Below, piece by piece: positions 40,300-57,415 of a stretch of DNA of 64,000 nucleotides. The stretch is taken from positions 134,724 to 198,723 of the forward strand of contig CAVOFR010000001.1 in NCBI GenBank assembly GCA_963695075.1, given 5' to 3'. The notes under the pieces are model-generated. The model had not been told where the DNA came from. It saw nothing but the letters and a program-made list of their open reading frames with translations, and did not search any database. The DNA comes from an uncultured Acidimicrobiales bacterium. GTDB lineage: Bacteria > Actinomycetota > Acidimicrobiia > Acidimicrobiales > CAWCAL01. Both the position numbers and the translations under genes were made by a program. How positions within the stretch are numbered: the first letter of the stretch is position 1; each line of letters starts with the position of its first letter.

Positions 40300-40683
40300 T
40301 CAGAAGTCGATGTCAGGTCCGTCGGGGTCGCTGTCCATCGCTCCCATCAGGTAGTCGAACGACCCCACCAGCCAGAGAAGGGTGCCAAGCCCGATGACCC
40401 CCAGCGCCGGACCGAGGAGCGGTCCCGGGTCCTCCAGGACTGACGCCCCGACCTCTTGATTGATGCCGGCACCGAAAGACACCGCGCAGTAGCCGATGAC
40501 ACCGAGGACGGCCACGACAAACCCGCTCATGACGAGCCGCTTGCCGCGGTGCATCCTCTGCTCGGCTCTGGCATAGACCTCCGCCTTGGTGGCGAGCGGC
40601 TCGAGTTCGGACTCGATCGTGTCGTTGCTGTGCGTCGCGCCCATCGAGACGGGCACGACACCTGTGTTGCTCACAGTGCTCAT
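40300..40683 (-). CDS. 2-TM hypothetical membrane protein
   Basis: TAATG coupling to the upstream TDT gene, GGAGG SD, two hydrophobic helices. Confidence 0.7.
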   Translation of the reverse strand: MSTVSNTGVVPVSMGATHSNDTIESELEPLATKAEVYARAEQRMHRGKRLVMSGFVVAVLGVIGYCAVSFGAGINQEVGASVLEDPGPLLGPALGVIGLGTLLWLVGSFDYLMGAMDSDPDGPDIDF

Positions 40684-41867
40684 TACTGGGTACCTCCTGT
40701 TGCCGGTGTGTTGACGGTTGCATGGACCGGGGTCCGTTCGAGATGTGCGTAAGGTCGGTGGAAACGGAGCAGCACCGCGTACAGCACCCTCCGGGCCAGT
40801 CCTAGAAAGGTGAGCAGCCAGGCCGCGATCGCAGCGATGACGAACATGCGGGCGATCCACAGGAGAAAAGGCGCACCCATCGCGTCCGACAGGCGGAATG
40901 TGCACGCCGCGTACATTCCGATAGGGAAGACCAAGCCCCAGTAGAGCGGATCGTATGAGAGCCGGACGCCTTTGACCCAATGCCTCCAGATCCCCAGGAC
41001 CACGAGCATGGGGATCCACCAGGTCGCGGTCGCCCAGAACATCACGCTCAGCCCAAGGATGAAGGGGCGGAGCGGAGCGAGCATCACCGAATCCTCGACT
41101 GCGCTCGCAAGCATTGACCCCGCGTACGTGGAGATGGCGACTGCGCCCATGTTGATCCAGTACGGAGGCATGAGATCGTGCGGTGAGAAGGGGAAGAACA
41201 TGTAGCGATAGAAGATGAGGCCGATGATCCACAGGTAGAGCATTCCCCCGCCGAGCCAAAAGGCCATGAGTGTGAACAACGCGGCGTCTCGATCACCGAG
41301 GAGAGCGCCGTCGAGCACCAGGCCCAGGACGCTCACCGCCTGGGTGGCGACCACCGCGACGAGCCATCCACCGTTGATCCCCTTCGCCAGGGATGGCTTG
41401 TCCTCGCCCACAGTGAGCAACGCGAAGATGGTGTAGGTGCACGCCGCCCACAACGCGACGCAGACCCACCACAAGACCTGCGCAACCAGGATGGCGTCAT
41501 GGAGCAGCACCATCTGCGCGCCCAGCACGCCGGTTGCAGCGACGATGGTGAAGTAGCCGGGAGCGCGCGTATGGTCGCGCCAATCGGCTGCCACCCGATC
41601 GGGGAACATCACCGCCCGTGTGATGAATAAGACCCAGAGTGTGGGATAGGCCACCAGGTTGATCCAGGAGAGGAGGCGGGCCAGATCGTGCAGGCCAAGC
41701 AGATAGCACGAGACCGCGACGATCCCCGTTGCCATGGCAAGCGCGAAGCTTGCCGGGTGCATGATGGCCAGCCGAGCTTTTAGATGAATGACGACAGGGA
41801 GTTCGGCGTATTCGCGAAGGTCCGCGATGTCCCTCGTCGGCTGAGATTCCAGCAGCATGCTGCTCAT
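40683..41867 (-). CDS. TDT/SLAC1 family transporter (tellurite resistance / C4-dicarboxylate)
   Basis: FALAMATGIV, GGWLVAVV, PYWINMGA, YWGLVFPIGMY; TAGCCT-N6-ATG. Confidence 0.9.
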   Translation of the reverse strand: MSSMLLESQPTRDIADLREYAELPVVIHLKARLAIMHPASFALAMATGIVAVSCYLLGLHDLARLLSWINLVAYPTLWVLFITRAVMFPDRVAADWRDHTRAPGYFTIVAATGVLGAQMVLLHDAILVAQVLWWVCVALWAACTYTIFALLTVGEDKPSLAKGINGGWLVAVVATQAVSVLGLVLDGALLGDRDAALFTLMAFWLGGGMLYLWIIGLIFYRYMFFPFSPHDLMPPYWINMGAVAISTYAGSMLASAVEDSVMLAPLRPFILGLSVMFWATATWWIPMLVVLGIWRHWVKGVRLSYDPLYWGLVFPIGMYAACTFRLSDAMGAPFLLWIARMFVIAAIAAWLLTFLGLARRVLYAVLLRFHRPYAHLERTPVHATVNTPATGGTQ

Positions 41868-42000
41868 ACTTCGAGGCTAGGACGCACCGGGCGGAGGGCA
41901 TATCGGCGCTCGTCTGAACCCCATGCCAGATGATCGGGAGCTGTCTGTAGGTGTTTGACTGACACCGGCCGGTGCTGCACTGACCGGTGGAACTGGCCGT

Positions 42001-42636
42001 CTACTGCACCAAACCGTGCCGCATTGCGTAGCGCATGAGCTGCGCATTGGAGCTCATACCCATCTTCTCGAGGATCCGCGACCGGTAGGTGCTGATGGTC
42101 TTGACGCTCAAGCCGAGCTGAGCGGCGATCTCGGACACTGAGCGTGCCGACGCCAGGAGCAGGAGCACCTCGTACTCGCGGGGAGAGAGCAGATCGTGCG
42201 GTGTTTCGGATCCGGATCCGACGAGAGCGACATAGTCTGCGAGCTCCGCAGCCACGGTCTCGCTGAGGTAGCGCTTGCCGTCGAGCACGCTGCGGATGGC
42301 CTCCAGGAGCTCCTCGGGCGCACGGTCCTTCGTCAAATAGGCTGAGACGCCAGCGCGCAGTGCACGGACCACGAACTGCCGCTCGCCGAACATGCTCAAG
42401 ACGACGATCGGCATATTGGGGCGGCTCTCCAGCAGCTCTGGCACCAGCTCCAGGCTGTTTCGGTCTTCGAGCGCGATGTCGAGAACGAGTACGGACCAGC
42501 TCCTCTCGCGGATCTTGTCGCGAAGCTCGCTGCAGGAGCCGACCTCGCCGACGATTGCGCCGGGAAACGCATCGGCGACGATCCGGCGCAGCCCTGAGCG
42601 TAGGATCACATGGTCGTCAGCCAGGAGAATGCGCAT
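42001..42636 (-). CDS. NarL/UhpA family response regulator
   Basis: LADDH, LDI, LSPREYEV, LSVKTISTYRSRI. Confidence 0.93.
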   Translation of the reverse strand: MRILLADDHVILRSGLRRIVADAFPGAIVGEVGSCSELRDKIRERSWSVLVLDIALEDRNSLELVPELLESRPNMPIVVLSMFGERQFVVRALRAGVSAYLTKDRAPEELLEAIRSVLDGKRYLSETVAAELADYVALVGSGSETPHDLLSPREYEVLLLLASARSVSEIAAQLGLSVKTISTYRSRILEKMGMSSNAQLMRYAMRHGLVQ

Positions 42637-44422
42637 CGGCGCCTTCCGCTCGGGTCTGCACTGGAACGGTCACGGTCACGGTGGTCCCCTCATGTGGGGC
42701 TCCGTGGATCGAGATGCGCCCATCGACGAGCGTCGCCCGTTCACTCATGCCGATGATTCCCAGCGACTCGCCGCTGTCGATCGCGTCCGTCGTGATTCCT
42801 CTTCCATCGTCGCTTACCACGAGAACCGTGTCCTCTCCCGTCGTTGCCAGGTCGATTTGGACTACCTTTGCCTGCGCGTGGCGAACCACGTTGTTGAGCG
42901 CCTCCTGTGCGATCCTGAACAGCGTCACCGAGACGAGCTCGTCGAGGGCCCCGTCGTCAACTTCCGACTCCACCTGGATGGCGAGGCCGGTACGGGTCTC
43001 GATCTCGCGAGCCTGCCACTCGAGGGCCGCTGTGAGCCCGAGCCTGTCCAGCACACCGGGCCGGAGATCCGAGGAGATTCGTCGCACGAAGTCCACCGCG
43101 TCGTCGAGCTGTCGGGTCATCGCGGCAGCTCCCTCTTGGAGCGCTGCCGCACAGTGTGGCGGCCGGTCGTCAGGGGAACAAGACGACGCCAACCGCGACA
43201 GGTCGATCTTGAGGGAGGTGAGTGTCTGGCCGATCTCGTCGTGCAGCTCGCGGGAGATCCGTGTCGCCTCCGCCTCGCGCGCCACCTGGAGCCGGCTTGC
43301 GAGCGCTCTCAAACGAGTCTGCGCGTCGACGGCTTCGCGCTGACGGGCGGCGAGGGACTCGGCCATCTCGTTGAATGCCGTGGTCACCGACGCCAACTCA
43401 TCGTGGGCGCGTGGCACCTTGGCCCGCGCCGCGAGGTCGCCGGCTCCGAGGCGGCGAGCAGCACGCGCCAGGGAGCGCAGACCACGCAGGAACCCGAACT
43501 CGGCCGCGATGAACACCGCGGCGATCGTGAACAGGGTGAGGACGGTCAAGCCCGCGAGCGTGCGGTAGAAGGCTGAGTTGGCTTGCTCCACCACGCGATC
43601 GTAGGGAAGAGAAACAGCCGCGAAGAGCTCCGGTGATTCCTGCAAGGGGACGGCTACGAAGTAGCGACGGTCGCCCGTATCACCGATTTCGAGCACCCGC
43701 CCCTGCTGCGACTGCGAGAGCTCCGAGACGCCGGCGATGCGCGGAGCACTGGTGTTCTCGACCTCGGCGCCACCACTGTCAGCTACCGCGAGCAGCCGAT
43801 CTCCCGAATCCACGATGAACAGGGCGAGTCCGTCTGGGAGACCGTTCTGTCGATCGATGTCCGAGAGCCAGGCGAGATCGAGTCCGTTGAACAGTACGGC
43901 CATCACCTCGTCGTTGGCATCTCTGACTGCATAGGCGAGATTGAGCGTTGGGCGCTCGAAGATGGTTGAGACGACATAGGTCCCCGACGCAACCTCTTCG
44001 GAACGCAACGCGGCGATGTAGGCCGGGTTGTCTCGCCAGCTTTCGTAGCTCGAGAGGGGATAGGCACTCGCGAGGACCTCGCCGTCAGGCGAGAGAACGC
44101 CGATGTTCGCGAGCTGCGGGTGACCGGCGAGCAGCGCCTCCAAGAACCCGGGGTCCTCGAGGATCGGTGACTGCAACCCGTCAGCGGCCATCTTCGTACC
44201 GAGCCAGGACAGCAGGTCGCGGGCGCCTTGAATCTGATGGGCGTGCTCGCGGCTCGCGAGGCCCGCCAGGTGTAGTGCATCGAGTTCCGTGCGCTCCAGC
44301 GCAGCGGAGCGCTCGTTTCCGGCCACGAAGAATGCGAACAGAACCGCCGGCAGCGTGGCGAGGCAGATGAGAAAGAGCATCCGACCGCGTAGCGACAGCG
44401 GAGTTCTCCTGATGCGGCTCAT
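42617..44422 (-). CDS. Cache-HAMP-HisKA_3 sensor histidine kinase
   Basis: Two TMs around an extracytoplasmic domain, RELHDEIGQ, QEALNN, DDGRG, GMSER. Confidence 0.92.
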   Translation of the reverse strand: MSRIRRTPLSLRGRMLFLICLATLPAVLFAFFVAGNERSAALERTELDALHLAGLASREHAHQIQGARDLLSWLGTKMAADGLQSPILEDPGFLEALLAGHPQLANIGVLSPDGEVLASAYPLSSYESWRDNPAYIAALRSEEVASGTYVVSTIFERPTLNLAYAVRDANDEVMAVLFNGLDLAWLSDIDRQNGLPDGLALFIVDSGDRLLAVADSGGAEVENTSAPRIAGVSELSQSQQGRVLEIGDTGDRRYFVAVPLQESPELFAAVSLPYDRVVEQANSAFYRTLAGLTVLTLFTIAAVFIAAEFGFLRGLRSLARAARRLGAGDLAARAKVPRAHDELASVTTAFNEMAESLAARQREAVDAQTRLRALASRLQVAREAEATRISRELHDEIGQTLTSLKIDLSRLASSCSPDDRPPHCAAALQEGAAAMTRQLDDAVDFVRRISSDLRPGVLDRLGLTAALEWQAREIETRTGLAIQVESEVDDGALDELVSVTLFRIAQEALNNVVRHAQAKVVQIDLATTGEDTVLVVSDDGRGITTDAIDSGESLGIIGMSERATLVDGRISIHGAPHEGTTVTVTVPVQTRAEGADAHSPG

Positions 44423-44703: not shown

Positions 44704-44732
44704 GGTGACGGTGAGTCGGCCTGTAGGCGGGG
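44704..44732 (-). repeat. att core: duplicate of the rnpB 3' end
   Basis: ggtgacggtgagtcggcctgtaggcgggg identical to 57020-57048 (29/29). Confidence 0.92.
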
Positions 44733-44792
44733 CACAGATCACCCAACCGGCGAACCGTTACCAACGATGGGATCGGGGAGTTACGCCGACCG

Positions 44793-44815
44793 GCCGTGAC
44801 AAAGCCATGACAACG
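44793..44815 (+). repeat. putative integrase arm-type sites, left end
   Basis: gccgtgacaaagccatgacaacg, tandem 11-bp unit, 20/23 identical to 56899-56921. Confidence 0.6.
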
Positions 44816-44996
44816 CATCGTCCGAGGTTCCCATGACTTCGGCGACGGCGGACCTCGTCTCCTCGGCTGAGTCCGCCACGTGCACCCAGGGAACGGCGCC
44901 GAACTTTCGAACACATCGACGGCTCGGAGGAGAAGTTGTCAATGGAATGAAGCGGTTCGTGTCGCGGACGTCATCCACCGCCCGAGATCCGAGACT

Positions 44997-45674
44997 TCAC
45001 GTGAATTCGTCGGCCTGGGATCGGGTACTCGGATGCTCGCGCAACACAGTGACGAGGATGAAGTACAAAACCGGGACCGAGAAGTACAGGACCGTACTGA
45101 GCGTTGTAGACACATCGGCCAAGGCGATCGCCACGAGGTAGAGGGCGAGCGGCGCCGCCGTGATGGCGAGCCCCAGGCCCGTTCGGTCGGTCGACAGGTC
45201 GGTCCACAACAGTGCCGGCCGTTTGACCGCGTACCGGTAGAGCACAAATCGCATCAGGGTGGCGGCGATCAACACGACGCCGTAGAGGTGCAGAGCGACC
45301 GGCTCGTCTGGATACTTTCCGAGCACCGACGCTGCAAACGGGATCAGACTCACCGGCAGCAGGAACAGCAGGTTCAGCCAGACCAGATCGCGATTGACGA
45401 CCCTGACGCGAGCGAGGAGGTCGCGGTGGGCAACCCAGAACATGCCGGTCAGCAGGAAGCTGATCACCCACGCGACGAGGGTGGGTCGCAAGTCGTCGAG
45501 GGCCTCGTGCAGCGACTGCTCCGAGAGATTCTCGGGGACGGCGATCTCGAGCACCAGTATCGTGATGATGATCGCGAACACACCGTCGCTCAGCGCCACG
45601 ACGCGATCAGGGCTGCGCAGTCGTCGCTGCGTACCGTTCGTTCCCGAGTCGGGAGGGCCCTGCTCCTCAGTCAT
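44997..45674 (-). CDS. TMEM175/DUF1211 family channel
   Basis: RVVALSDGVFAIIITILVLEI, FWVAH, WLNLLFL. Confidence 0.9.
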   Translation of the reverse strand: MTEEQGPPDSGTNGTQRRLRSPDRVVALSDGVFAIIITILVLEIAVPENLSEQSLHEALDDLRPTLVAWVISFLLTGMFWVAHRDLLARVRVVNRDLVWLNLLFLLPVSLIPFAASVLGKYPDEPVALHLYGVVLIAATLMRFVLYRYAVKRPALLWTDLSTDRTGLGLAITAAPLALYLVAIALADVSTTLSTVLYFSVPVLYFILVTVLREHPSTRSQADEFT

Positions 45675-45709
45675 CGAGCCATCCTCGCAGACACCACCGG
45701 CGACGCCAA

Positions 45710-45726
45710 TCGCTCATTGTGGATGA
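45710..45726. promoter_or_regulatory. putative LuxR operator between divergent TMEM175 and ClC genes
   Basis: TCGCTC-attgt-GGATGA fits TCRYNC-N5-GNRYGA. Confidence 0.5.
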
Positions 45727-45826
45727 TCGTTCACCGACCGACAGCTGCAAACATGGTTCGGATCCGGGTGCGTTGATCCCGGCGCGGCAACATCGTGGCG
45801 TCCGTACCAGAACCCGAGGCACCAAC

Positions 45827-47089
45827 ATGACGACGGCGCTCCCCATCGACCGACCGTGGTACCGACAACTTCTCGCCATCGCCCTGGCGATGGGACTCGT
45901 CATCGGCCTGCTCGGGCTCGTCTATCTCGCGATCACCGGCGGGTTGACCGATCGGATCTTCGGTGATCCACGGATCGACACCTGGTCCGGCGACTGGTGG
46001 TGGATCCCGTTCATCGCGGCCGGCGGTCTGGTGGCGGCGGCGGTGCGCAGCTGGCTGAACATCACCGATCACGTGCCCGGTGGCGTCGCCGTCATCGAAT
46101 CCGGTTCGGTCGACCACAAGGTCGCACCGTCGTGGGTCCTCCTCTCGGCCGTCTCAGCGATCGCGGGCGCCAGCCTCGGGCCATCGTTTGCCCTGGTCAT
46201 GATCGGAGGCGGCCTCGGTTCGTGGATCGCATCGCGGCGCTGGCCGGGTGACGAGCCGGCCCGTCTCGACACGACGTTGGCGGGCATCTCCGGTGGCTTC
46301 GGTGGCGCCTTCACCTCCCCGGGTCTCGGGACGCTGATCGTCAGCGAGCTGGCCCCAACGCCGAAGGATCGGTACATCGAGTCGATCCTGCCGCAACTGT
46401 TCGCCGCGACGATTGCCTTCGCCGTGTTCTTCGGCGTGGTCGGCACGACGTTCCTCAACAGCTTCGCAGTGCCGGTCGACGACTTCTCGAGCTGGCACCT
46501 CCTCATCGGTGCCGCGCTCGGAATCGCCTCGAGCGTGATCATGATCGTGTTCGTCTTCATCGTGAAGCTGATCCAGGCGGTCGCGACGAAGCTGTCGAAC
46601 CCGTACGTGCGCGGCGCCGTCGGTGGCGCGCTCGTCGGGCTGATCGCGTTCGCACTCCCGCTCACCATCGGGGCTGGCAACGATCAACTCACCACGGTGA
46701 TCGACGAGTCGGCATCGATCAGCATCTGGCTGCTCGTCGCGGTGCTCGTCGGCAAGATGCTGGCGATGGCGATCAGCCTCGCCACGGGCTTCATCGGCGG
46801 CAACGTGCTGCCGATGCTCTTCGTCGGCGGCACCGCCGGCGTCGTCGCGCACCTGATGTTCCCCGACATCCCGTACGCAATCGCTGTCGGGTGCATGCTG
46901 GCGGCCGTCCCAGGGGCGACGATCAAGGCGCCGATCGGGCTCACGTTCATCGCCGTGCTCGCCGTGGGCCTCGGTCCACTCACGGCCGCTCCGGTCTTCA
47001 TCGCTGTGGCGACGGCGTACCTGACGACCTCCACCGTCGTCGCGCTGATCAGGTCACGGCGAGTCGACGTACCCGAGCCGCACGCCTGA
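45827..47089 (+). CDS. ClC family chloride channel-like protein
   Basis: GASLGPSFA (GxEGP-equivalent), GGAFTSP, GFIGGNVLP, multiple TMs. Confidence 0.85.
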   Translation: MTTALPIDRPWYRQLLAIALAMGLVIGLLGLVYLAITGGLTDRIFGDPRIDTWSGDWWWIPFIAAGGLVAAAVRSWLNITDHVPGGVAVIESGSVDHKVAPSWVLLSAVSAIAGASLGPSFALVMIGGGLGSWIASRRWPGDEPARLDTTLAGISGGFGGAFTSPGLGTLIVSELAPTPKDRYIESILPQLFAATIAFAVFFGVVGTTFLNSFAVPVDDFSSWHLLIGAALGIASSVIMIVFVFIVKLIQAVATKLSNPYVRGAVGGALVGLIAFALPLTIGAGNDQLTTVIDESASISIWLLVAVLVGKMLAMAISLATGFIGGNVLPMLFVGGTAGVVAHLMFPDIPYAIAVGCMLAAVPGATIKAPIGLTFIAVLAVGLGPLTAAPVFIAVATAYLTTSTVVALIRSRRVDVPEPHA

Positions 47090-47118
47090 CCACCGGATGG
47101 TGAATGGTCGCGGCGTCG

Positions 47119-48867
47119 TCACCCAGGGGGTGCGCTCGGGTGGAGCGTCTGATGCATGGCGACCGCGGCCTCGATGTTGTCGTGGACGTGGCTCCGATCG
47201 ACGAGGTCGAAGAAGCCGTCCCGTTCGAGCACCTCGGTCACCTGTGGTTTCACGCGGGCGAGGTGCAGGTCGATGCTCTGGTCGATGCCGGCCCGGGCGA
47301 TCGCCGTCAAGACGTCGGCCCCCTCGGTGTCGATGAAGTTGACGCCCTCCATGCTCAGAATCACGCCGTCCAAACCTGTCGGTTCCTGGACACGGATCTG
47401 ACGGAGGCGGTCCGCGAGCGCATCGGCGTTGACGAAGAACAGCCCGCCGTCGAACCGGAGGATCTTCAGCCCGGGAATGGTCTCACAGTCGTCGTGCCGC
47501 TCGAGGTCGTAGAACGCATCGGTCCCCGGCTTGCGGCCCAGCTCCGGGATGTACGGCAGCGCCGAGACCGCGATGAGCCAGATCATCGAGATCCCGACTC
47601 CGATGAAGACCCCTTGCAGGATGCCGAATGTCATCACGCCGAGCAGGGCGAGGAGCGCAGCGCCGAACTCGTACCGCTTGACTGTGACCAGTCGCCTCAT
47701 CTCCCCGACGTTCATCATGCCGAGCGTCACGGCCTCGATGATGATCGCTCCGAGCACCGCCTCGGGGAGCTTCGAGAAGATCGGCGCGAGGAAGAGCAGG
47801 GTCAGGATCACGAAGCCACCCTGGGCGAGGGTCGACACCTGTGACCGTGCCCCGGCGCCGTCGTTGACGGGGCTCTTGGAGAGGCTGCCGTTGTTGAAGA
47901 TCCCCTGGAATACGCTCGACGACACGTTCGACATGCCCTGGGCAAGCAGTTCCTGGTCGACGTCGATCCGGTAGTTGTGCTTGGTCGCGTATTGGCGCAC
48001 CCCGGCGGTCGTCACCGAGAACCCGATGAGCACCAGTCCGACCGCTGCGCCGAACACCACCGACCAGTTGTCGAAGATGATGTCCAGGTCGGGGAACGAG
48101 GGATTCGGAAGGCCTCGCGGCACGTCGGCGATCAGTTCGACTCCGCGGTCGCCGAGATCGAAGACCACGGTCGCGAGAATGCCGAGGAGCACCGCGACCA
48201 GCTCGGCGGGTACCTTCGGCACGAGGAACTTGAGGCCGAACAACACGACCAGCGCCACCGCGCCGACGGCGACCGTGGTCCGGTTCGCGTCGGACAGGCT
48301 CGCCGCCCACTCCCAGAGCTTCTCCCACGTGTTCGAACCCGACTTCTCGGTCCCCGCGAGCTTGAAGAGCTCACCGGACACGACGTTGATTGCGACGCCG
48401 AAGATGAACCCGGTCAACACGGCCGCCGAGAGGAACTCGGCGATCCAGCCCATCTTGAGTACGGCCATGATTACGAACAGCAGCCCGGCGACCAGCACGA
48501 TGGCCGTGGCGATCGCCACCGCGTCGTCGGAGCCCGCCGCTCCGATCGACACGATGGCCGCACCCAGCACCGGGGCGGTCGACGAACCCGGGCCCTGCAC
48601 CAGTTGCTTCGACGTCGTGAAGAGCGCGAACACGATCATGCCGAACGCCGCGGCGTACAACCCGTTCTGGACCGGGACGCCGCTCAACGACGCGTAACCG
48701 AGCGAGGTGGGGACCATCAGCGCCCACACCGACAGCCCGGCGATCACGTCCTTGGTGAGCCAAGACCGCTGATACTGGGGCAGCCAGGCCAGGATCGGAA
48801 CGAACCGCTTGATCGAACTCGGTTTGGATTCCGCCGTCGCGACCCCTTGGCTGCCCTCAGCACCCAT
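47119..48867 (-). CDS. SulP family anion transporter with STAS
   Basis: PTSLGYA, GLY, QGP, GSLSKS, GARSQ, FIDTEG. Confidence 0.92.
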   Translation of the reverse strand: MGAEGSQGVATAESKPSSIKRFVPILAWLPQYQRSWLTKDVIAGLSVWALMVPTSLGYASLSGVPVQNGLYAAAFGMIVFALFTTSKQLVQGPGSSTAPVLGAAIVSIGAAGSDDAVAIATAIVLVAGLLFVIMAVLKMGWIAEFLSAAVLTGFIFGVAINVVSGELFKLAGTEKSGSNTWEKLWEWAASLSDANRTTVAVGAVALVVLFGLKFLVPKVPAELVAVLLGILATVVFDLGDRGVELIADVPRGLPNPSFPDLDIIFDNWSVVFGAAVGLVLIGFSVTTAGVRQYATKHNYRIDVDQELLAQGMSNVSSSVFQGIFNNGSLSKSPVNDGAGARSQVSTLAQGGFVILTLLFLAPIFSKLPEAVLGAIIIEAVTLGMMNVGEMRRLVTVKRYEFGAALLALLGVMTFGILQGVFIGVGISMIWLIAVSALPYIPELGRKPGTDAFYDLERHDDCETIPGLKILRFDGGLFFVNADALADRLRQIRVQEPTGLDGVILSMEGVNFIDTEGADVLTAIARAGIDQSIDLHLARVKPQVTEVLERDGFFDLVDRSHVHDNIEAAVAMHQTLHPSAPPG

Positions 48868-48873
48868 CGCGCA

Positions 48874-49401
48874 TCAGCTCTCTGCCTCGGCGTCCTTCTT
48901 GATCTCCGCGGTGTCAGCCTCGAGCTGTTTCTCCTCGACCTTGTCGGCCTTGCCCATGACGCCCTCGATCTTCGCGCCCATGTCGGACACACCGACCACG
49001 ACGAGCCCGGCCTCGCCGGCATCGAGGTTCTCTCCGAGCTCCTTGAGGTCCTTGCGGCTCATACCGGCCGCTGCGTGCCCGGCCATTGCACCGAGGGCCG
49101 CACCGCCACCGGTGGTTGCCGCGAGCAGCCCGCCCCCTAGCGCGGCCGCCGGGAACAGCGCGACGACAAGGCCGGTCGCGAGGCCGATGCCCGCGCCACC
49201 CCAGCCGCCCGCCCGTGTGGGCGTCTCGTGCTTCTTGACGATCTTGACCTTACCGTTGTCCTTGCGCTCGATGACGGCGGCGTCGTAGGCGTCGATGAGG
49301 CCTTCCTTGGTGTGGAGGTCGTGAACTGCCTGGTAGTCGGCCTTGGCGTCGTCGACGCCCGAGTACACGCCGACGTACGCCATGAATGTGTCCATTGCCA
49401 T
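48874..49401 (-). CDS. DUF1269-like membrane protein
   Basis: DAAVI, Gly/Ala-rich hydrophobic hairpin, LGENLDAGEAGL; AGGAG SD. Confidence 0.8.
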   Translation of the reverse strand: MAMDTFMAYVGVYSGVDDAKADYQAVHDLHTKEGLIDAYDAAVIERKDNGKVKIVKKHETPTRAGGWGGAGIGLATGLVVALFPAAALGGGLLAATTGGGAALGAMAGHAAAGMSRKDLKELGENLDAGEAGLVVVGVSDMGAKIEGVMGKADKVEEKQLEADTAEIKKDAEAES

Positions 49402-49467
49402 GTCCTGCTCCTTCGTTCGGTGAACCACTTGACAACGCCATCCTGACCCCGACTCGCGCAGCAGCAG

Positions 49468-49654
49468 TCATGCAACCTGGGTGATCCGATCACCGACGGG
49501 ATCGACCGGCGGATGTGGATTCCCGGTGTCAGCCGAGCACGCTCGGCGCCAGCAGGCCCAGCTCCCGGGCCCGGTCGACCGCCTCGCTACGACCGGACAC
49601 CGCCAGCTTCCGGTAGATCGAGTTGGCCTGGGTGCTCACCGTGTTCCTCGACAC
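49468..49654. repeat. 187-bp direct repeat, copy A (orphan luxR 3' end + operator)
   Basis: Matches 52915-53101 with one mismatch seen. Confidence 0.92.
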
Positions 49655-50409
49655 ATCCCGAGCGACGTGTGAACTCAGCTGCCGGGTGATCGCGCCCCGC
49701 CGGGGTAATCACTCCGACGACGCGCTGCCACCCCACCCGCGGATGACGCGCTCCTGTTCGGTCTGATCGGTGATGGCCTTCGTGCCGGTGGGGTTGCGCC
49801 ATCAGAACTTGCGGTCGTCGTCGTCGCCGGTGCGGTCGTAGATCGGGTAGTCGGCATCTGCGGGAGGGAATGCATCTCTGGACGCTGAACGGGCGACACG
49901 CCTGTGCGGCGGTTGGGCCCTAGTAACCCAGTACTTCATGTGCGGCGAACAGTTCGTGTTCGATGTCGCACGGCAACTGGACATGCCGACGTACGAAGCG
50001 GAGCAACTCGTCGCCCATTTGGAGCAGTACCAGCTCCGTCGTTCGACTGGGTGATGAACTTCACGCTGGCGTGAACCTTCGGCGCAGGCGCAACCGTGCC
50101 AAGGGTCCAGCGAATCGGCGCCCCGAGCCGCTGAGCGGCTCTCCGACCGCCGCTGGGGTCGCCTGCAAGGGGCCGGTAGTAGCGTCCATCGTCCAGGCTG
50201 ATGAAAGGCGCAGCGACCTCAGTCACATGCGCCACGACCTCGCCAACGTCAGACTGGAGAGGGCGTCGCCTTCAGGCGTCGTGGGAGCAGAACCAGCCGC
50301 AGTCGGTGCCTGAGCAGCCGCCCTCCGAGCAGACCGATCGGCAGGACTCTGGGGGCGGAGCGGTCTTCGGCGCGATCACGTAGCGGGTCTGGCGGACAAG
50401 AACGGCGAT

Positions 50410-51156
50410 TCACGCCATTCGCGTCCGGAGTTCGTCATAGAGCGCTCGGTAGGTGGCGGCGGCGGCGGTCTTGGGTCGTTCGACGGTGACCGGGGAGCGG
50501 TAATCGGCCATGGTCTCGATGTGGACGGAGGCGGGAATCGACTGGTCGAGAACGGGCTCGCGCTCGAGCGGGAGGCGTTCGGACAGCTCTCGGTGTCGCT
50601 TCTTGCGTCGGTCGACCATCGAGAGGAACGCGAGGGCTTGGACGTTGCGGAGTTTCCTGTCGGCTCGGAGGTAGGCCGTCAGTTGGTCGAAGCTCCGTAG
50701 GGGCAGTGCCGCCGGAATGATCGGGACCAAGACGGTGTCGGTCGCTCGTAGCGCCGTGTCGATTGTCAGCGTGATGCCGGGAGGGCAGTCGAGGAACACC
50801 GAGTCGAAGCGATCTTCGACTCGTTCGAGGATTCTCGTGATCTGCGCTCTCGGCTTGGCGAGGTCGGCGAGTTCGAGGTCGAGGTAGCGGAGCGAGAAGT
50901 CAGCGGGCACGACGTCGAGCCCTGGGTGGATCGTGTGGACGATCGATTCGCTCATGCGGCGGCGTTTCCTCACCATCCTCCTTCCACCCCCTGGGACGCG
51001 CTCCCCGACCCGCAGGATGTGGGTTGCAGCACCTTGGGGATCGAGGTCCCAGAGAAGGGTGCGGTCGCCGGACTCGGCCGCGAGTTGTGCGAGATTGACC
51101 GCGGTCGTTGTCTTGCCGACACCACCCTTGATGCTCGCCAGTGCGATGACCTTCAT
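50410..51156 (-). CDS. ParA/MinD family ATPase
   Basis: KGGVGKTT deviant Walker A, DLDPQ, DCPP; TGATG coupling to the CYTH-CHAD gene. Confidence 0.92.
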   Translation of the reverse strand: MKVIALASIKGGVGKTTTAVNLAQLAAESGDRTLLWDLDPQGAATHILRVGERVPGGGRRMVRKRRRMSESIVHTIHPGLDVVPADFSLRYLDLELADLAKPRAQITRILERVEDRFDSVFLDCPPGITLTIDTALRATDTVLVPIIPAALPLRSFDQLTAYLRADRKLRNVQALAFLSMVDRRKKRHRELSERLPLEREPVLDQSIPASVHIETMADYRSPVTVERPKTAAAATYRALYDELRTRMA

Positions 51157-52661
51157 CAGCGGCGCCTGGTGGCGAGGTCGGCTCGGTCGGTCCGCTTCCA
51201 CTGCTTTCGAAAGTCGGCCTCGCAGTGGCCGGCGCGAGCGACGAGCAGGCCGGCCAGTTCCCCGGCCGCGAACGCAAGTTCTGGATGTCGGCTTGCCGTG
51301 GTGGCCAGGTGAGCTCTGATGACGATGGCGTCGTTGAGGTCCCCCAACGAGTTCTGGATCAGCTTCATCGCCTTCGCCAACCGGCGGGCGGGCTTGCCCA
51401 TCACCGGCTCGACTGCCTCCGCTGCATACCGGCATCGTTTCGACCTGATTCTGATGCGATGGATCTCCCCATGGCTCGGTTCCGGGCCGAGCCGTGCCAC
51501 AGCCTTGCGGAGCTTGCGCCATGGCCGATCGACCAGCGCCGGGATGGTTTCCTCGGCGGGGTCATCAGCCTGAGGGGCCGTTCGTGGGTCATCGGCTGCG
51601 GCGACCAGGTGGTCGAGGAGTTCGGTGCACCGTGGGCTGTCGAGCGCTTCGAGGAGGCGGGCATGCGCTTGGTTCCGTTCGACCCGCAAGTGCTCGAGCA
51701 ACGCCTTGGTGTCGTCTTCGTCGATATCGGGCTCGCCGTCGATCACGTGGGTCAGGACCTCGATGCGGACGTCGGCGTCGCGGACTTCGCCGAGCCGGTC
51801 TCCAAACCATCGAACCTCGTCGGAGACCTCAGCGACCCAGATCGGATCCAGAAGCGGACCGAAGGTCCTCAGATCAGACCGAAGGCGCCGTAACGCCACC
51901 CGGGCCTGATGAACACCTTCGGTTCCCTCGCCGACCCGTGCGATCGGAAGATTCAGGAGATGCGATTCGACCGATCGGGCGATCGCAGCGTGGATCACCT
52001 CCCTCGCCGTGGGAGAACCGCTCACGGGAGGAATGACCACGTCCGGAGGGGACTCGGCGGACGCTCCGAGTGCACGTGACAGCTTGGATTGAAGCGTGAG
52101 CCGGCCGCCCGCCTGCTCGTAGCACTCCAGGATGGAAGCGACGTCGTTCGTCGTGCGTCCCTCTGCGAGCTCGATCTCCACCATCTTGAAGTTCCACGCA
52201 GGCTGCCCCGGCACCTCGACGCGGACGTCGTCTTCCACGAGTTCTGCGACAGGGTGGCTGTCCGCATCGAGCACAAGGACCGGCTGTCGGATGGTATGGA
52301 GACGGGCAACCGTGACGAGCGCCTCGCCGCGGGCGAAGGGGCCGACGAGGCGGCTCGCGAGCGCCGGGGGCGACGATCCATCGTCGGCGATCAGGACCTC
52401 GGTGCGCAGCAGAACTCCCGAGCCGTCATTCCCGGTGGGCGCAGGGAGTTTCACCATCCACCCCTCATCGGACCGGCGCCGCAAACTGCACCCCCAACGG
52501 GTCAGGCGCAGGCTGTCCCCCGTGTCGAAATACTCGGCGCCGAGCTGGCGCTCGGGCAATACCGTGACCGAGCCACGACCGGCGCCAGCGGTCTCACCCA
52601 GATCCGGAATCACCAGTCCCGCATCAAAATCCAGCTTGATCTCTCGCTCGACCGACGCCAT
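51156..52661 (-). CDS. CYTH and CHAD domain protein
   Basis: EREIK, YFDT, LRRR, VEIEL (CYTH); HQARVALRRLRS, LGEVRDAD, HRIRIRSKRCRY, QNSLGDLND (CHAD). Confidence 0.92.
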   Translation of the reverse strand: MASVEREIKLDFDAGLVIPDLGETAGAGRGSVTVLPERQLGAEYFDTGDSLRLTRWGCSLRRRSDEGWMVKLPAPTGNDGSGVLLRTEVLIADDGSSPPALASRLVGPFARGEALVTVARLHTIRQPVLVLDADSHPVAELVEDDVRVEVPGQPAWNFKMVEIELAEGRTTNDVASILECYEQAGGRLTLQSKLSRALGASAESPPDVVIPPVSGSPTAREVIHAAIARSVESHLLNLPIARVGEGTEGVHQARVALRRLRSDLRTFGPLLDPIWVAEVSDEVRWFGDRLGEVRDADVRIEVLTHVIDGEPDIDEDDTKALLEHLRVERNQAHARLLEALDSPRCTELLDHLVAAADDPRTAPQADDPAEETIPALVDRPWRKLRKAVARLGPEPSHGEIHRIRIRSKRCRYAAEAVEPVMGKPARRLAKAMKLIQNSLGDLNDAIVIRAHLATTASRHPELAFAAGELAGLLVARAGHCEADFRKQWKRTDRADLATRRR

Positions 52662-52914
52662 CAGTGATCCGCCGAGCCAAGCATCCTTGCGGTGGACGAA
52701 CTCTGGGCGAGGGCGCCGAGCTGGCGGTGGTGACCGACAGCCACCGCGTCGGACATCTCCGGCGTCCTCAGCGAACGCGCCGGCGGCGGCCGGTTGAAGG
52801 ATGCGTGGCTCGCGATCCGGTGGCTGGCGCTCAACAGGGACTCCGGCGGCAGACGATGTAGACGCCGGTCAACATAGCTGGGGGGAGGAGGCCCACCGAC
52901 GCACCGAAACCGAA

Positions 52915-53101
52915 TCATGCAATCTGGGTGATCCGATCACCGACGGGATCGACCGGCGGATGTGGATTCCCGGTGTCAGCCGAGCACGCTCGGCGCCAGC
53001 AGGCCCAGCTCCCGGGCCCGGTCGACCGCCTCGCTACGACCGGACACCGCCAGCTTCCGGTAGATCGAGTTGGCCTGGGTGCTCACCGTGTTCCTCGACA
53101 C
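52915..53101. repeat. 187-bp direct repeat, copy B
   Basis: See 49468-49654; includes the last 42 codons (incl. stop) of the LuxR gene. Confidence 0.92.
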
Positions 53102-55225
53102 GTACAACCGTTCACCGATCTCCTTGAGCGAGAGATGCGTCTGCAGATACGGCAGCAGACGGAGTTCGGCGGTCGACAGTGCGGTGCCGTGCAGATTCGT
53201 CGGCCACTCGCTCAACGTCTGTCGGAGCACGTCTGCTCGCGCGCCGAGGCGGCCGAGTTTCGGTCGCCGGTACAGGACCCCTTCGACCTCCTGTAGCAGC
53301 GTCCTGGCGGCCCCGGGATCGCTCAATACCAGGTGGGCATCGGCCATCTCGAGACGCAACCACACCGCACCCCACGGGTTCACCCAGGTGACCGACGTCC
53401 GCAAACGCATTGCACGGGACAACGACACCCGACCCGTCTCGGTCTCGTTGCGCTGGAGCAACAGCCGGGCGCGGGCCGCCTCGACGATCGAGTTGACGGC
53501 GTACTCGGCGAGCTGTGCGCCATCGACCACCGAGACGGCGAGCTTGAGGTCGCGGTCGGCACTCTCCCAGTCGCCCCGATCCATCGACAGCACCGCCCGG
53601 TAGGCGAGGTAGCGCGCCTCGGGGTCGTCGAATCCGTCGACGCTGGTTGTCACCTCGATGCTCTCCGAAAGGAGTGCGAACGCCTCGTCGTCGTCGTCCT
53701 GCAGCCATCGGGCCACCGCGAGAAAGCCCAGGGAAGCCGGCCGCCATAGAGACCAGACCGGCTCATCGGTCACGACCGATCTCGCGTCCGCTTCCATCTG
53801 CTCGAGGCCGTGCGCACAGAGAAAGGCCCGGAGCGCAGCACGGCTCGACACGAACGATTCGTCCTCCGAGTCACCCGCGGACGTCAGGCGCTCGATGCGA
53901 TCGGCCCAGCGCTGCGCTCCGACGGCATTCCCAGTCAATGCTTCGAGCCAGCCGACCAGTCCGGCCAGTTCCGGATTCCGTTCGATCATCTCCTCGCCGA
54001 GTTGGTCCAGCCAGCTCCTGACAGCGCTCAACCGTCCGTCGTTGTACGCACGCGGCACCTCCGTGACGATCACGTCAGCGGCGATGGTGAGATCTCCGCC
54101 TGCCCGAGCATGTTCGATCGTGCGCTCGACCGAACCGGCCGCCGCCCACCACCGAGCGGCGCGCAGGTGGCGCTCCCGAACGGCGTCCAGTCCGGAACGG
54201 CTGGCCTCGTCGAGCAGCGCCGTCCTGAACATCGGGTGATAGCGATACCACCCGGCATCTCCGGCGAGTGGCGTGACGAACAGACGCGCGTTCATCAGGG
54301 TGTCCAACATCGCCGCCGAGTCGGTCGAGCCGACGACCGCGTCGCAAAGCGAGGGGTTCAGCACGTCCAGGATCGCCGTCCGATGCAGAAAGCGCGCGAC
54401 CTCTGGTGGGAGCCCAGCCAGGACCTCCGATCGGATGAGTTCGGACACGGCCCGGTCGGGCGACGACGGCGCGATGCTGGAACCGATCATTGCCGAGTCG
54501 CTGCGCTGGGTGAGCGCCAGGAGCGCAAGACCAGCGGGCCATCCCTCCGTTCGCTCGAGCAACCCACGAACCCGTTCGGGTGACGGTGCCAACCCATGGA
54601 GATCGAGGAGTTCCGCCGCCTCGACAGCGTCGAAGACGAGATCGGGCGCACCGATCTCGAGCACCTCGCCGTGCACGCGCCGACGACCCCCGGCGAGCCA
54701 CACCTCCCGGCGACTGGAGACGACCAGCTGGACCTGCTCGGGCAGGAGATCGAGGAGCAGCCGGAGCGCGTCACGGCAGTCGAGTGATCGGACCTCGTCG
54801 AGGTGTTCCAACACGATGACGAGCGGCTCGTCGACCGCACCGATCGAGGCCGCCAACGCCGGCACGACACGGCCTAGTATCGAGACGTCGGGCGAAGCCA
54901 GTTCCTGGGAGAGGGAGGGGTCGAGCTTCCGCACCCGCCTCACCCCGGTGACGATCGATGTCATCAGCGTCGCGACGTCGTCGTCGGTCCGGTCCAACGA
55001 CACCCACGCGACTGCGCGATCATCCTGTTCCAGCCAGTCGACGAGCAGCGTCGTCTTGCCATATCCGACTGGCGCCGACACGACGACCAACGGGAGGTCC
55101 GCGCCGGCCGCGAGCAGGCTCGTCAGGCGCCGCCGCCGGACGATCCCCGAACGCACCCGCGGCACACCGGTCTTCGCATCGACGAGAACCTGGTGAACGT
55201 CGATGCCGCCGATCCGGGTACCCAT
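52976..55225 (-). CDS. MalT-like large ATP-binding LuxR-family regulator
   Basis: APVGYGKTT P-loop, AWVSLD, TEGWPAGL, WYRYH, C-terminal HTH LSTAELRLL...VSRNTV...IYRKL. Confidence 0.92.
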   Translation of the reverse strand: MGTRIGGIDVHQVLVDAKTGVPRVRSGIVRRRRLTSLLAAGADLPLVVVSAPVGYGKTTLLVDWLEQDDRAVAWVSLDRTDDDVATLMTSIVTGVRRVRKLDPSLSQELASPDVSILGRVVPALAASIGAVDEPLVIVLEHLDEVRSLDCRDALRLLLDLLPEQVQLVVSSRREVWLAGGRRRVHGEVLEIGAPDLVFDAVEAAELLDLHGLAPSPERVRGLLERTEGWPAGLALLALTQRSDSAMIGSSIAPSSPDRAVSELIRSEVLAGLPPEVARFLHRTAILDVLNPSLCDAVVGSTDSAAMLDTLMNARLFVTPLAGDAGWYRYHPMFRTALLDEASRSGLDAVRERHLRAARWWAAAGSVERTIEHARAGGDLTIAADVIVTEVPRAYNDGRLSAVRSWLDQLGEEMIERNPELAGLVGWLEALTGNAVGAQRWADRIERLTSAGDSEDESFVSSRAALRAFLCAHGLEQMEADARSVVTDEPVWSLWRPASLGFLAVARWLQDDDDEAFALLSESIEVTTSVDGFDDPEARYLAYRAVLSMDRGDWESADRDLKLAVSVVDGAQLAEYAVNSIVEAARARLLLQRNETETGRVSLSRAMRLRTSVTWVNPWGAVWLRLEMADAHLVLSDPGAARTLLQEVEGVLYRRPKLGRLGARADVLRQTLSEWPTNLHGTALSTAELRLLPYLQTHLSLKEIGERLYVSRNTVSTQANSIYRKLAVSGRSEAVDRARELGLLAPSVLG

Positions 55226-55293
55226 GGTCCCGACACGGTAGCGGAACCCGCTCGGCCGCTTCCGAAGGTGTGGGCTCCGACATCCACGCCCTG

Positions 55294-56712
55294 TCAGAGG
55301 TCGCGGACGATGGGCACCCGGCCGTCGTCGACGGCACCGATCAGTTCGTCGTAGTCCTGCTCGGTGCGATCCGCATAGGCCTCGGCGAACCGGGCTACCG
55401 CCCGATCGAAGGTGTCGTCGTCGCCGATGTACCCGGAGATCATCGACGCGTCACCGGACCGGGCGTGGGCGCGTCCGAGCGCTGCTCCACAGGCCATCGC
55501 ATAGCGTCGGATCACCTTCGCCGTCATGGTCTCGACGTCAGCGGACGCCTTGCCGTCCCAGAGTTGACGGACGTAGAAGTCGGTGGTCGATTCGTCGTCA
55601 CGCTCGTAGCGGGCCCACCCGAGGAGCGCGTCCGGTGTCGCCTGGATCCTTCGTTGGCCGTCGACGACGCGGTGGCCTTCCTGGTCGAATCCGCTCGGCG
55701 CCAGGTGCGCCTCGAGCACCGACGGCGCCGCCTCCTTGATCTGCAGGAACAGCGGTTCGCCGTCGCCCGATTCGAACAGCGCGATCAGACATCGGGTACC
55801 AACACTGCCGACGCCGACCACCTTGCGTGCCAGGTCCGTCAGCGAGTAGCGGTCCATCAGTTGGCGCCGGTCGGCGTTCAGCGTTGCCCGGTAGTCGTCG
55901 AAGAACCCATCGATCCGCGTCATCTCCTCCCGGCGTTGCGCATCGGTCATCGCCACGATCAAAGGCGGGTTCGACACGATCACGCGGCGACCGTGGACCA
56001 CGTCGGTGAGCTTGCCCAGCGCCCCGAGGCTGTTCTTCTTCGCCGACTTCCTGCGCGTCTTCGCCAGACGGCGCCGATCGCTCTTCGCCGTGGCGAGCGT
56101 CGTGGCCAGCTCCTCGACATCCAGCCGGTAGTAGAAGAGATCGAGTGGGTTCATCGCCGCCGCGGTCTGGATCGCCCGGCGATACTCGGAGGTCGCTGCC
56201 CGCGCGATCTTCCGACTGGTCTTCTTGTCGAAATGGTTGTTCCGGCCCGCCACCACGACGCTGGCCGCGAGTCGCTTGACGTCCCATTCGAAGGGTCCCG
56301 GAAGCGTCTCGTCGAAGTCGTTGATGTCGAACACGAGACGGCGTTCGGGTGAGGAGAACATCCCGAAGTTCGACAAATGAGCGTCACCGCACAATTGCAC
56401 GGTGATGTCGGTCCGCGGACCCGCCGCCAGATCGGCTGCCATGACCGCCGCCGACCCGCGCAGGAACGTGAACGGTGTGGCCAACATCCGCCCGTATCGG
56501 ATCGGCACGAGATCCTGAAGTCGGTTCGCGTCCTGGGCCTGCAGGATCGCCAGAGCGCTGGCTCGATCATCGGGAACGACGAGATCTGCGTGCTCATCGA
56601 GCGGCACCGACTCACGCCGGCCCCGACCGGCAGCAGCCCGCGCTACCTTGGGCTCGCGCCGACTCTCGAGCGACCAGCGTGGGTCACGCTGGGAGGTCTT
56701 CGGGACACCCAT
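55294..56712 (-). CDS. DUF2252 family protein (kinase-like)
   Basis: RYGRM, FLRG, CGDAHLSNFG, FDINDFDE, KVVGVGSVG, LQIKEA, FYVRQL, AHARSGD. Confidence 0.92.
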   Translation of the reverse strand: MGVPKTSQRDPRWSLESRREPKVARAAAGRGRRESVPLDEHADLVVPDDRASALAILQAQDANRLQDLVPIRYGRMLATPFTFLRGSAAVMAADLAAGPRTDITVQLCGDAHLSNFGMFSSPERRLVFDINDFDETLPGPFEWDVKRLAASVVVAGRNNHFDKKTSRKIARAATSEYRRAIQTAAAMNPLDLFYYRLDVEELATTLATAKSDRRRLAKTRRKSAKKNSLGALGKLTDVVHGRRVIVSNPPLIVAMTDAQRREEMTRIDGFFDDYRATLNADRRQLMDRYSLTDLARKVVGVGSVGTRCLIALFESGDGEPLFLQIKEAAPSVLEAHLAPSGFDQEGHRVVDGQRRIQATPDALLGWARYERDDESTTDFYVRQLWDGKASADVETMTAKVIRRYAMACGAALGRAHARSGDASMISGYIGDDDTFDRAVARFAEAYADRTEQDYDELIGAVDDGRVPIVRDL

Positions 56713-56809
56713 GACTTCTCCCTGTGGTAGGTGGCGTGGTGGTCGATGGCGTGATGAGCCACGATCGCAGGATCGATCTTCATTTTCCAGGACGGCGATG
56801 CGATCCGCA

Positions 56810-56826
56810 TCATCCGTTCTGCGCGA
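56810..56826. promoter_or_regulatory. putative LuxR operator upstream of DUF2252
   Basis: TCATCC-gttct-GCGCGA. Confidence 0.5.
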
Positions 56827-56898
56827 TGCCTCCCCGTTCACCCGCAGTGGACGACGGGCCCACTCTCGGGCCACCGGACAACGACGCATGGTCTCGAC

Positions 56899-56921
56899 GC
56901 CGTGACAACGCGATGGCAACG
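56899..56921 (+). repeat. putative integrase arm-type sites, right end
   Basis: gccgtgacaacgcgatggcaacg. Confidence 0.6.
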
Positions 56922-57022
56922 GTGAGGACGAGACCGGACGAAATCGTGAGTGTCCGTGCGAAAGCCAGCGGACCCCGGATCCCCTGTGCCCCTTGGGATT
57001 CCCCCTGAAACTCAGGGCCGGT

Positions 57023-57415
<393 letters not shown>

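Follow-up and report, generated by a model that had tools for sequence, protein, structure and literature searches.

In Actinoplanes SE50/110, the palindrome TCATCC-5 nt-GGATGA precedes 17 starts, at a distance of 34.4 +/- 1.0 nt to the transcription start site (TSS), and the MalT-like LuxR gene ACSP50_3915 was associated with control of this region, its deletion lowering 42 of 51 genes and its overexpression raising 39 (Droste et al. 2020, PMC7567727). The region is induced on maltose and responsive to growth phase, and its cargo includes three DUF1269 genes and a SHOCT gene, with DUF2252 occurring in the A. missouriensis region (PMC7567727). Here, a regulon of this type is described in an uncultured Acidimicrobiales bacterium (assembly GCA_963695075.1, contig CAVOFR010000001.1), in a stretch of 64,000 nucleotides hereafter designated as the window, where a 12-kb block holds the gene of a 749-amino-acid (aa) MalT-like LuxR regulator next to ion channel, transporter and DUF genes preceded by a 17-bp palindromic box. 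The original prediction made for this locus proposed that the palindrome marks a regulon of this activator, which is likely on the evidence of searches in the host genome, distant loci and -10 elements, together with the Actinoplanes genetics (PMC7567727). It also held that no characterised version was known, a statement at odds with the Actinoplanes report.

Several features of the Actinoplanes type were found in the window, namely a palindrome in front of the cargo, a MalT-like LuxR gene in the region and shared cargo families. In both systems, the 17-bp box abuts the -35 region, the regulator gene is co-transcribed with cargo, the gene order is shuffled, and horizontal transfer is likely. 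Families in common are DUF1269, SHOCT, AI-2E, diacylglycerol kinase (DAGK), MFS, RNase BN/BrkB, DUF308 and ppk2, as well as DUF2252 of A. missouriensis; DUF1269 and DUF2252 lie in the block itself, and SHOCT, DAGK and MFS at paralogous loci of the same genome. The spacing of about 34 nt to the TSS also agrees, as judged by a -10-like register and by a distance of 35 nt in the case of TMEM175. Judged from its sequence on box, spacing, regulator and cargo features, the window works like the published Actinoplanes-type MalT regulon (MRLGR). It differs from it by its Acidimicrobiia host, the 12-kb block, the short regulator, a Ser in place of a recognition-helix Lys, a Walker B His and the relaxation of its boxes at position 5. 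The terms 'SulP' and 'chloride channel' are absent from supplementary file 1 of PMC7567727 in its accessible part, where TMEM175 was not searched for.

Other described systems are more distant. E. coli MalT (PDB 8BOB; PMC10427625) shares the NOD, the helical sensor and the LuxR-type helix-turn-helix (HTH), and the GGATGA half-site agrees with the MalT core GGA(T/G)GA quoted in PMC7567727; unlike in E. coli, no mal genes occur among the predicted targets, the half-sites form a fixed inverted pair with a 5-nt spacer, and the regulator scores under the MalT equivalog cut-off. The footprinted group I box of Streptomyces BldM has the same half-sites, bound by a LuxR/NarL-type HTH, but it is 16 bp long with a spacer of 4, and BldM is an atypical response regulator with developmental targets (PMC4125116). 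Mycobacterial IniR is likewise an actinobacterial MalT-like ATPase regulator, linked to trehalose and envelope stress, but it is reported to regulate only iniBAC, and the accessible part of that report gives no binding motif (PMC5760070).

The palindrome as a probable activator site

Two forms of the 17-bp palindrome were searched, the originally proposed TCRYNC-N5-GNRYGA and a sharper TCAYCC-N5-GGRTGA, intergenic or coding status being assigned with a gene caller trained on this genome. The four palindromes first noted, at 56810, 52915, 49468 and 45710, were recovered with identical coordinates and letters, and the same search of the whole window returned two further matches, one at 5645 and one, missed initially, at 56838 in the DUF2252 promoter. 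These 6 matches compare with 3.65 expected, at least 6 being obtained in 17 of 100 shuffles, and enrichment over background was thus absent for the bare pattern in the whole window; it was present with promoter context and outside the window, in replacement tests run because the whole-window shuffle was not significant. Genome-wide, the proposed pattern has 149 matches, or 0.39 per 12.3 kb, against five in the block, each with 1-2 mismatches from TCA(T/C)CC-N5-GG(A/G)TGA.

The sharper form has four perfect intergenic matches in the genome, all less than 4 kb from MalT-like genes on contigs C5 or C7, and no perfect intergenic box at spacers 2-4 and 6-9. When the proposed pattern was required to be intergenic and to have both a -10 register and a start codon, 8 of the 149 matches remained, all within 7.3 kb of the regulators on C1, C5 and C7, and the same filter left 1, 0 and 0 at spacers 4, 6 and 7; among the eight, 56838 passes solely through overlap with the neighbouring box, its apparent -10 register being merely a half-site of the latter. 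Using the window regulator, 28 loci were fetched, comprising 18 distant actinobacterial loci (348 kb), 7 close ones and 3 from Chloroflexota. At spacer 5, 60 perfect boxes were counted in the distant actinobacterial loci, and the remaining spacers between 1 and 10 gave 0-2 apiece; the close loci contain 0 perfect and 11 one-mismatch boxes, and the Chloroflexota loci 0 perfect boxes. A -10-like A..T at box positions 41/45 or 42/46 was found on the gene side of 35 of 44 de-duplicated sites, versus 5 of 44 on the far side, with a T at -12 in just 1 of the 35. The shortest distances from box to start codon cluster at 34-40 nt, in agreement with the TSS distance of 34.4 +/- 1.0 nt published for Actinoplanes (PMC7567727). 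This layout would correspond to a weak promoter with an activator site centred near -43, with transcripts that may sometimes be leaderless.

The association with MalT-like genes was also seen in broader collections. In an even sample of the phylum (69 genomes, with scoring limited to 13 candidates in each), 12 of the 29 perfect boxes lay within 11 kb of a MalT-like hit, and in a pair of genomes (8.5 and 9.2 Mb) the sole 3 boxes lay within 5.4 kb of the single MalT-like hit; the unpublished genome G078 (one box, one hit) was excluded from all counts. Among metagenome loci collected by the motif first, those of at least 10 kb had a MalT-like gene in 8 of 14 cases (7 of 13 contigs), and shorter ones in 2 of 9 (5-10 kb), 5 of 32 (2-5 kb) and 0 of 74 (below 2 kb). 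We are highly confident that the box is an activator site of the MalT clade. In seven Thermoleophilia loci (L009, L011, L014, L016-L018 and L020), an additional TCACCC half-site often follows at 7 nt from the box, in some cases on either flank, and the resulting arrays of three or four half-sites would fit oligomer binding. A one-mismatch box also stands 29 nt before an inorganic pyrophosphatase gene (G000:C3:331453), 74 kb from any MalT-like gene, and fails the promoter filter.

In the window, a -10 register is present at four of five promoter-facing positions (DUF2252, DUF1269, ClC and TMEM175; not CHAD), and alignments of the block with its relatives show box and -10 as conspicuous conserved blocks. 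The DUF2252-luxR operon is preceded by a proximal box, TCATCC-N5-GCGCGA (56810-56826), conserved in relatives and followed by a -10-like GAAAAT at 56787-56782, with the start codon 97 nt off. A second box, TCACCC-N5-GGACGA (56838-56854), lies 28 nt upstream of the proximal one, at an offset also occupied by a box in four close loci (L001, L002, L003 and L007). The DUF1269 box, TCATGC-N5-GGGTGA (49468-49484), has a -10-like CAGGAT at 49445-49440 and a start 72 nt off, and both box and -10 are conserved in 7 of 7 related loci aligned. It belongs to the second copy (49468-49654) of a 187-nt repeat, which retains the original DUF1269 promoter; the first copy (52915-53101), 99% identical, comprises the luxR 3' end and the box at 52915-52931, with no -10 element behind it, which bears out the earlier remark that two of the four boxes are copies within one duplication. 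The duplication terminates exactly at the outermost base of the box, and the 600 nt behind the second copy (49655-50253) match none of the fetched loci and contain loose half-sites and a short open reading frame (ORF) remnant. A bidirectional box, TCGCTC-N5-GGATGA (45710-45726), would serve both ClC and TMEM175, with -10-like elements on either side: AAACAT at 45749-45754 towards ClC, and GAGGAT at 45686-45681 towards TMEM175, whose start is 35 nt off and whose transcript is likely leaderless.

A MalT-like regulator with an altered recognition helix

The regulator (52976-55225, reverse strand) is a MalT-like STAND activator with a NOD, a short helical-repeat sensor and a LuxR-type HTH (Pfam AAA+GerE). 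It aligns to MalT 8BOB with an E of 7e-36 and 25% identity across the N-terminal 420 aa, scores 253 bits against the NCBIfam MalT equivalog NF003420 (cut-off 537) and has no TPR_MalT match; its predicted structure (pLDDT 86) has MalT as top fold hit. Walker A (G-Y-G-K-T) is intact, and Walker B reads E140-H141 where MalT has D-D. The second Asp is replaced by His in 6 of 7 rows of the local clade, versus D-D in 53 of 65 others. The behaviour of the MalT D129A variant is part of the background on this motif; literature searches returned no source for it, and none for NarL Lys188.

The recognition helix of the window regulator reads S710-R-N-T-V-S715-T-Q717. Box-bearing regulators mostly have S-x-N-T-V-K-x-H, including the paralogues on C5 (SRNTVKSH) and C7 (SANTVKTH), and the window clade has S-R-N-T-V-S-T-Q. 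By residue pattern, S715 aligns to K182 of DosR, where K179, K182 and N183 of the pattern K179-T180-x-K182-N183-Y184 read bases (PMC13486717). Boxes relaxed at position 5/13 account for 25 of 26 near regulators of the Ser-helix clade versus 11 of 86 near K-type regulators; counted by half-site, deviations at position 5 occur in 25 of 60 versus 12 of 206, and at position 3 in 12 of 60 versus 14 of 206. The loose consensus originally proposed thus resulted from a real local relaxation of the boxes, for which the Lys-to-Ser change in the helix is a likely explanation. The HTH is 97-98% identical within the local clade, against 76-80% for the NOD, which argues against a dead protein.

A FastTree phylogeny was built on 72 of 76 MalT-like proteins, four of less than 700 aa being dropped. 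A box was found within 8 kb for 45 of the 53 regulators of one clade (SH-like support 99), versus 3 of the 19 outside it. A family-level search in three genomes returned no new clade member. Four other loci (L069, L070, L076 and L219) have MalT-like regulators with an S-P-A-T-V-K helix amid the same cargo (DUF2252, DUF1269, AI-2E, SulP, SHOCT), without clear 17-bp boxes. The search for another palindrome near SPATVK-, TLDTVK- and NTVR-helix regulators gave only GC-rich noise, with a weak method for which the true half-site tied fourth in the positive control.

Weighing of the rival explanations

A number of observations weigh against the box as an activator site read by the local regulator. 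In the phylum sample, 17 of 29 perfect boxes were not near a MalT-like hit, the reversed-pattern control giving 7. The 28 loci were chosen by similarity to the window regulator, and the search profile was built from those same loci. The tree association concerns one clade and about one evolutionary event, 8 of the 53 clade members having no nearby box, several of them on short contigs; the Ser helix with its relaxed boxes similarly represents one event at about six orthologous promoters, where kinship inflates the counts. Compared with the long form, the sensor lacks 100-150 aa. Regarding Actinoplanes, the accessible text of PMC7567727 contains no binding assay and cites unpublished data attributing only slight effects to a second MalT-like gene. 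In congener G002, island L034 carries four boxes intact at 5/13 with no MalT-like gene in C6:1-49500, so that the box type does not always track the local gene, and the sole full-length Asn-helix regulator found in that genome is of the Ser type.

The main readers of the boxes could instead act in trans, namely the Lys-helix paralogues encoded on C5 or C7, or mixed oligomers in which the local Ser-helix protein is a minor partner. Perfect boxes beside both paralogues, the boxes of L034 lacking a local regulator, the little effect of the second Actinoplanes gene and the loss of the helix Lys and second Walker B Asp from the local protein all speak in its favour. It is nonetheless unlikely: the HTH is the best-conserved part of the local protein, the relaxation is focused on half-site positions 5 and 3 and not spread as in decay, and G002 retains relaxed boxes although no full-length Lys/Asn-helix paralogue was found there. 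The local gene would quite probably be the main reader of the boxes.

Far less probable is another LuxR-type reader, such as the NarL-type response regulator at 42001-42636 or a BldM-like factor, even though BldM binds the same half-sites, TCACcCgnncGgGTGA (PMC4125116), and two-component pairs flank some loci. The BldM group I box (16 bp, spacer 4) was rejected by its spacer, the 18 distant loci having 0 perfect boxes at spacer 4 versus 60 at spacer 5; the response regulator has no close match in L001-L007 and L067, which retain boxes, and the Actinoplanes deletion implicates a MalT-like gene (PMC7567727). We give slightly less credence still to the palindrome being an RNA hairpin or a site of recombination through which cassettes are shuffled. 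Its half-sites can indeed be paired into a 6-bp stem with a 5-nt loop, the 187-nt duplication stops at the outer edge of a box, and cargo order varies widely, but among 72 sites the stem extends neither outside nor inside the box (22, 21, 25 and 23, 18, versus 19.8, 21.7, 24.3 and 25.7, 20.4 expected), and positions 4/14 show no compensatory pattern, so that the RNA hairpin was rejected; moreover, a box upstream of the inferred and published starts lies outside the transcript under its control. Chance, that is, a pattern adjusted after the fact to three intergenic stretches rich in GC, would explain the 6 matches against 3.65 expected in the window and appears hardly credible in view of the independent loci, the spacer controls, the -10 register, the footprint conservation and the published motif.

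Proposed mechanism and cargo

The explanation that we favour, and consider probable as a whole, is that the palindrome is a class II activator site abutting the -35 region for MalT-like LuxR proteins, most likely the local 749-aa regulator. By reference to E. coli MalT and Actinoplanes genetics, a small-molecule signal, the best candidate being an alpha-glucan-derived sugar accumulating in later growth, would bind the sensor domain, upon which the regulator would oligomerise and a pair of HTH domains would recognise the TCAYCC half-sites, which are inverted and centred near -43. Housekeeping RNA polymerase would then be recruited to weak promoters devoid of the -12 T. Predicted targets are DUF2252-luxR, implying positive autoregulation, and DUF1269-SulP, together with ClC and TMEM175, which would share a single box. 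The Ser at the position of DosR K182 would remove one base contact, leaving half-site position 5 free to vary.

A sugar is a tentative choice of ligand, made by analogy, and just as tentative is the idea that a sugar signal linked to the turnover of alpha-glucans and to later growth turns on membrane-adjustment genes. This suggestion is based on the Actinoplanes data, E. coli MalT (PMC10427625) and the glycogen-debranching, GH63 and G6PD genes of an island on C5. The C5 island (L030, G000:C5:239973-247151) encodes a GH63-like hydrolase, a glycogen debranching enzyme, an aldose epimerase and a G6PD with a perfect box 57 nt upstream, and these sugar genes are reminiscent of the glucosidase and alpha-amylase genes that share a transcript with the Actinoplanes regulator.

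Pfam confirmed the predicted labels of TMEM175, Voltage_CLC, SulP+STAS, CHAD, ParA-type ATPase, DUF2252 and the AAA+GerE regulator, found DUF1269 weakly, and gave no match for CYTH. The DUF2252 protein (472 aa; 55294-56712, reverse strand; Pfam E 7e-141) belongs to a family of the Pfam protein-kinase clan (PMC9758233). It is accompanied by a DUF1269-like Gly-rich membrane protein (48874-49395, reverse strand; 21.7 bits, cut-off 26.9) with orthologues 88-95% identical in L001-L006, a SulP/SLC26 anion transporter with a STAS domain (47119-48867, reverse strand; Pfam/NCBIfam), a TMEM175-family K+ channel (44997-45674, reverse strand; Pfam E 2e-26) and a ClC-family protein (45827-47089, forward strand; Pfam Voltage_CLC), whose best NCBIfam hit, PRK03655, is far under its cut-off. 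Canonical CLC Cl-/H+ antiporters have their gating glutamate within G(K/R)EGP; the ClC-like protein of the window has G-P-S-F at this site and so lacks that residue, and a paralogue on C8 retains G-P-E.

Across loci, the pool of genes behind boxes comprises DUF7144, DUF1269, DUF6325, SHOCT, DUF308, DAGK, SulP, CLC, K+ channels, sulfatase-modifying factor, AI-2E, DedA/VTT, GAP, BrkB, PPK2, MFS and DUF2252. The ion genes of the window are one local draw from this variable pool, in which ion transport is one recurring theme of several. The pH or ion homeostasis purpose suggested by the original prediction is thus not supported, given the variable pool and the absence of the gating glutamate, and appears doubtful; what is switched on is likely a set of membrane and stress-adjustment genes and not a dedicated pH system. 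A small protein of about 50-115 aa is encoded directly behind boxes, next to the regulator, in L011 (3152-3376) and nine similar ORFs including G000:C7:21448-21678, with no match in Pfam (two members scanned) or NCBIfam (one member).

The cassette of CHAD (51156-52661) and a ParA-type ATPase (50410-51156), spanning 50254-52909 on the reverse strand, is a later insert that had been counted as a CYTH-CHAD/ParA unit of the regulon. This membership did not stand: the box at 52915, 253 nt from CHAD, is a passenger of the duplication without a -10-like element and probably not a CHAD promoter. The cassette is absent between luxR and DUF1269 in L001-L006 and L067, and is 96% identical to a cassette in L034, another island of congener G002, with no box before it. 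CHAD/ParA was rejected as a box target on these grounds, and is likely a passenger outside the regulon.

A probable island at the 3' end of rnpB

On its right border, the block is flanked by the RNase P RNA gene rnpB (57024-57410, reverse strand; Rfam RF00010, 232 bits). A 29-nt exact copy of the rnpB 3' end (57020-57048) at 44704-44732, also on the reverse strand, is likely a displaced attachment-site fragment, so that 12.3 kb (44704-57048) are enclosed. In congeners G001 and G002, this locus has the rnpB 3' end in a single copy and is missing all of 40.2-57.0 kb, which suggests that the block is likely an integrated island. An intact RNA gene at one end, a displaced fragment at the other and an empty site in relatives, as in islands at RNA-gene 3' ends, were all found, and no integrase was detected among the 22 + 11 window ORFs scanned. 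As judged from a literature search, the RNase P RNA gene seems an uncommon landing site. Literature searches found neither the helix variant nor integration at rnpB, which is weak evidence that neither is published, the same searches having missed PMC7567727.

Immediately beyond the repeat are a NarL-type two-component pair (42001-44422) and the gene of a SLAC1/TDT transporter. The regulator had been described as the only one in the island, which is correct between the two RNase P RNA repeats and does not extend to this pair or to the MalT-like paralogues with the same boxes on C5 and C7; since these paralogues carry the same boxes elsewhere in the genome, the regulon cannot be called self-contained either. 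The stretch 40300-44422 encodes a Cache/HAMP histidine kinase, the NarL-type regulator, SLAC1/TDT and a 127-aa protein without Pfam match; it is absent at this locus in both congeners and possibly represents an older, nested insertion. The same module, with 76-95% protein identity and different flanks, was found in L001-L007 and L067, in metagenome-assembled genomes titled Ilumatobacteraceae and Acidimicrobiaceae and in congener G002, several copies having split genes that may be assembly errors. In G002, L034 and L247 (G002:C6:10001-49500) form a regulon-type island in which the boxes are intact and the vicinity showed no MalT-like gene; it carries a P-type ATPase, PPK2, DAGK, SulP, CLC, a K+ channel, DUF6325 and SHOCT, with CHAD-ParA at its edge.

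Significance

The regulon type and its box were already published, and the core finding is in this respect ordinary; the Ser helix, the relaxed boxes, the altered Walker B and the rnpB-bounded setting make the locus a modest variant within a family that spans Actinomycetia, Thermoleophilia and Acidimicrobiia. The local clade could tentatively be viewed as a naturally re-tuned MalT-like switch, in which the Lys-to-Ser change widens specificity at one base, the loss of the Walker B Asp may give a hydrolysis-poor, partly signal-independent protein, and a five-gene channel/transporter module moves between Acidimicrobiia families via RNA-gene 3' ends such as rnpB. The clade yields a prediction of one residue for one base. 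If this view of a re-tuned switch is true, helix residues and bases could be matched by a simple recognition code in a regulator family found across Actinomycetota, and the clade would be a compact system in which to probe the role of an enigmatic regulon.

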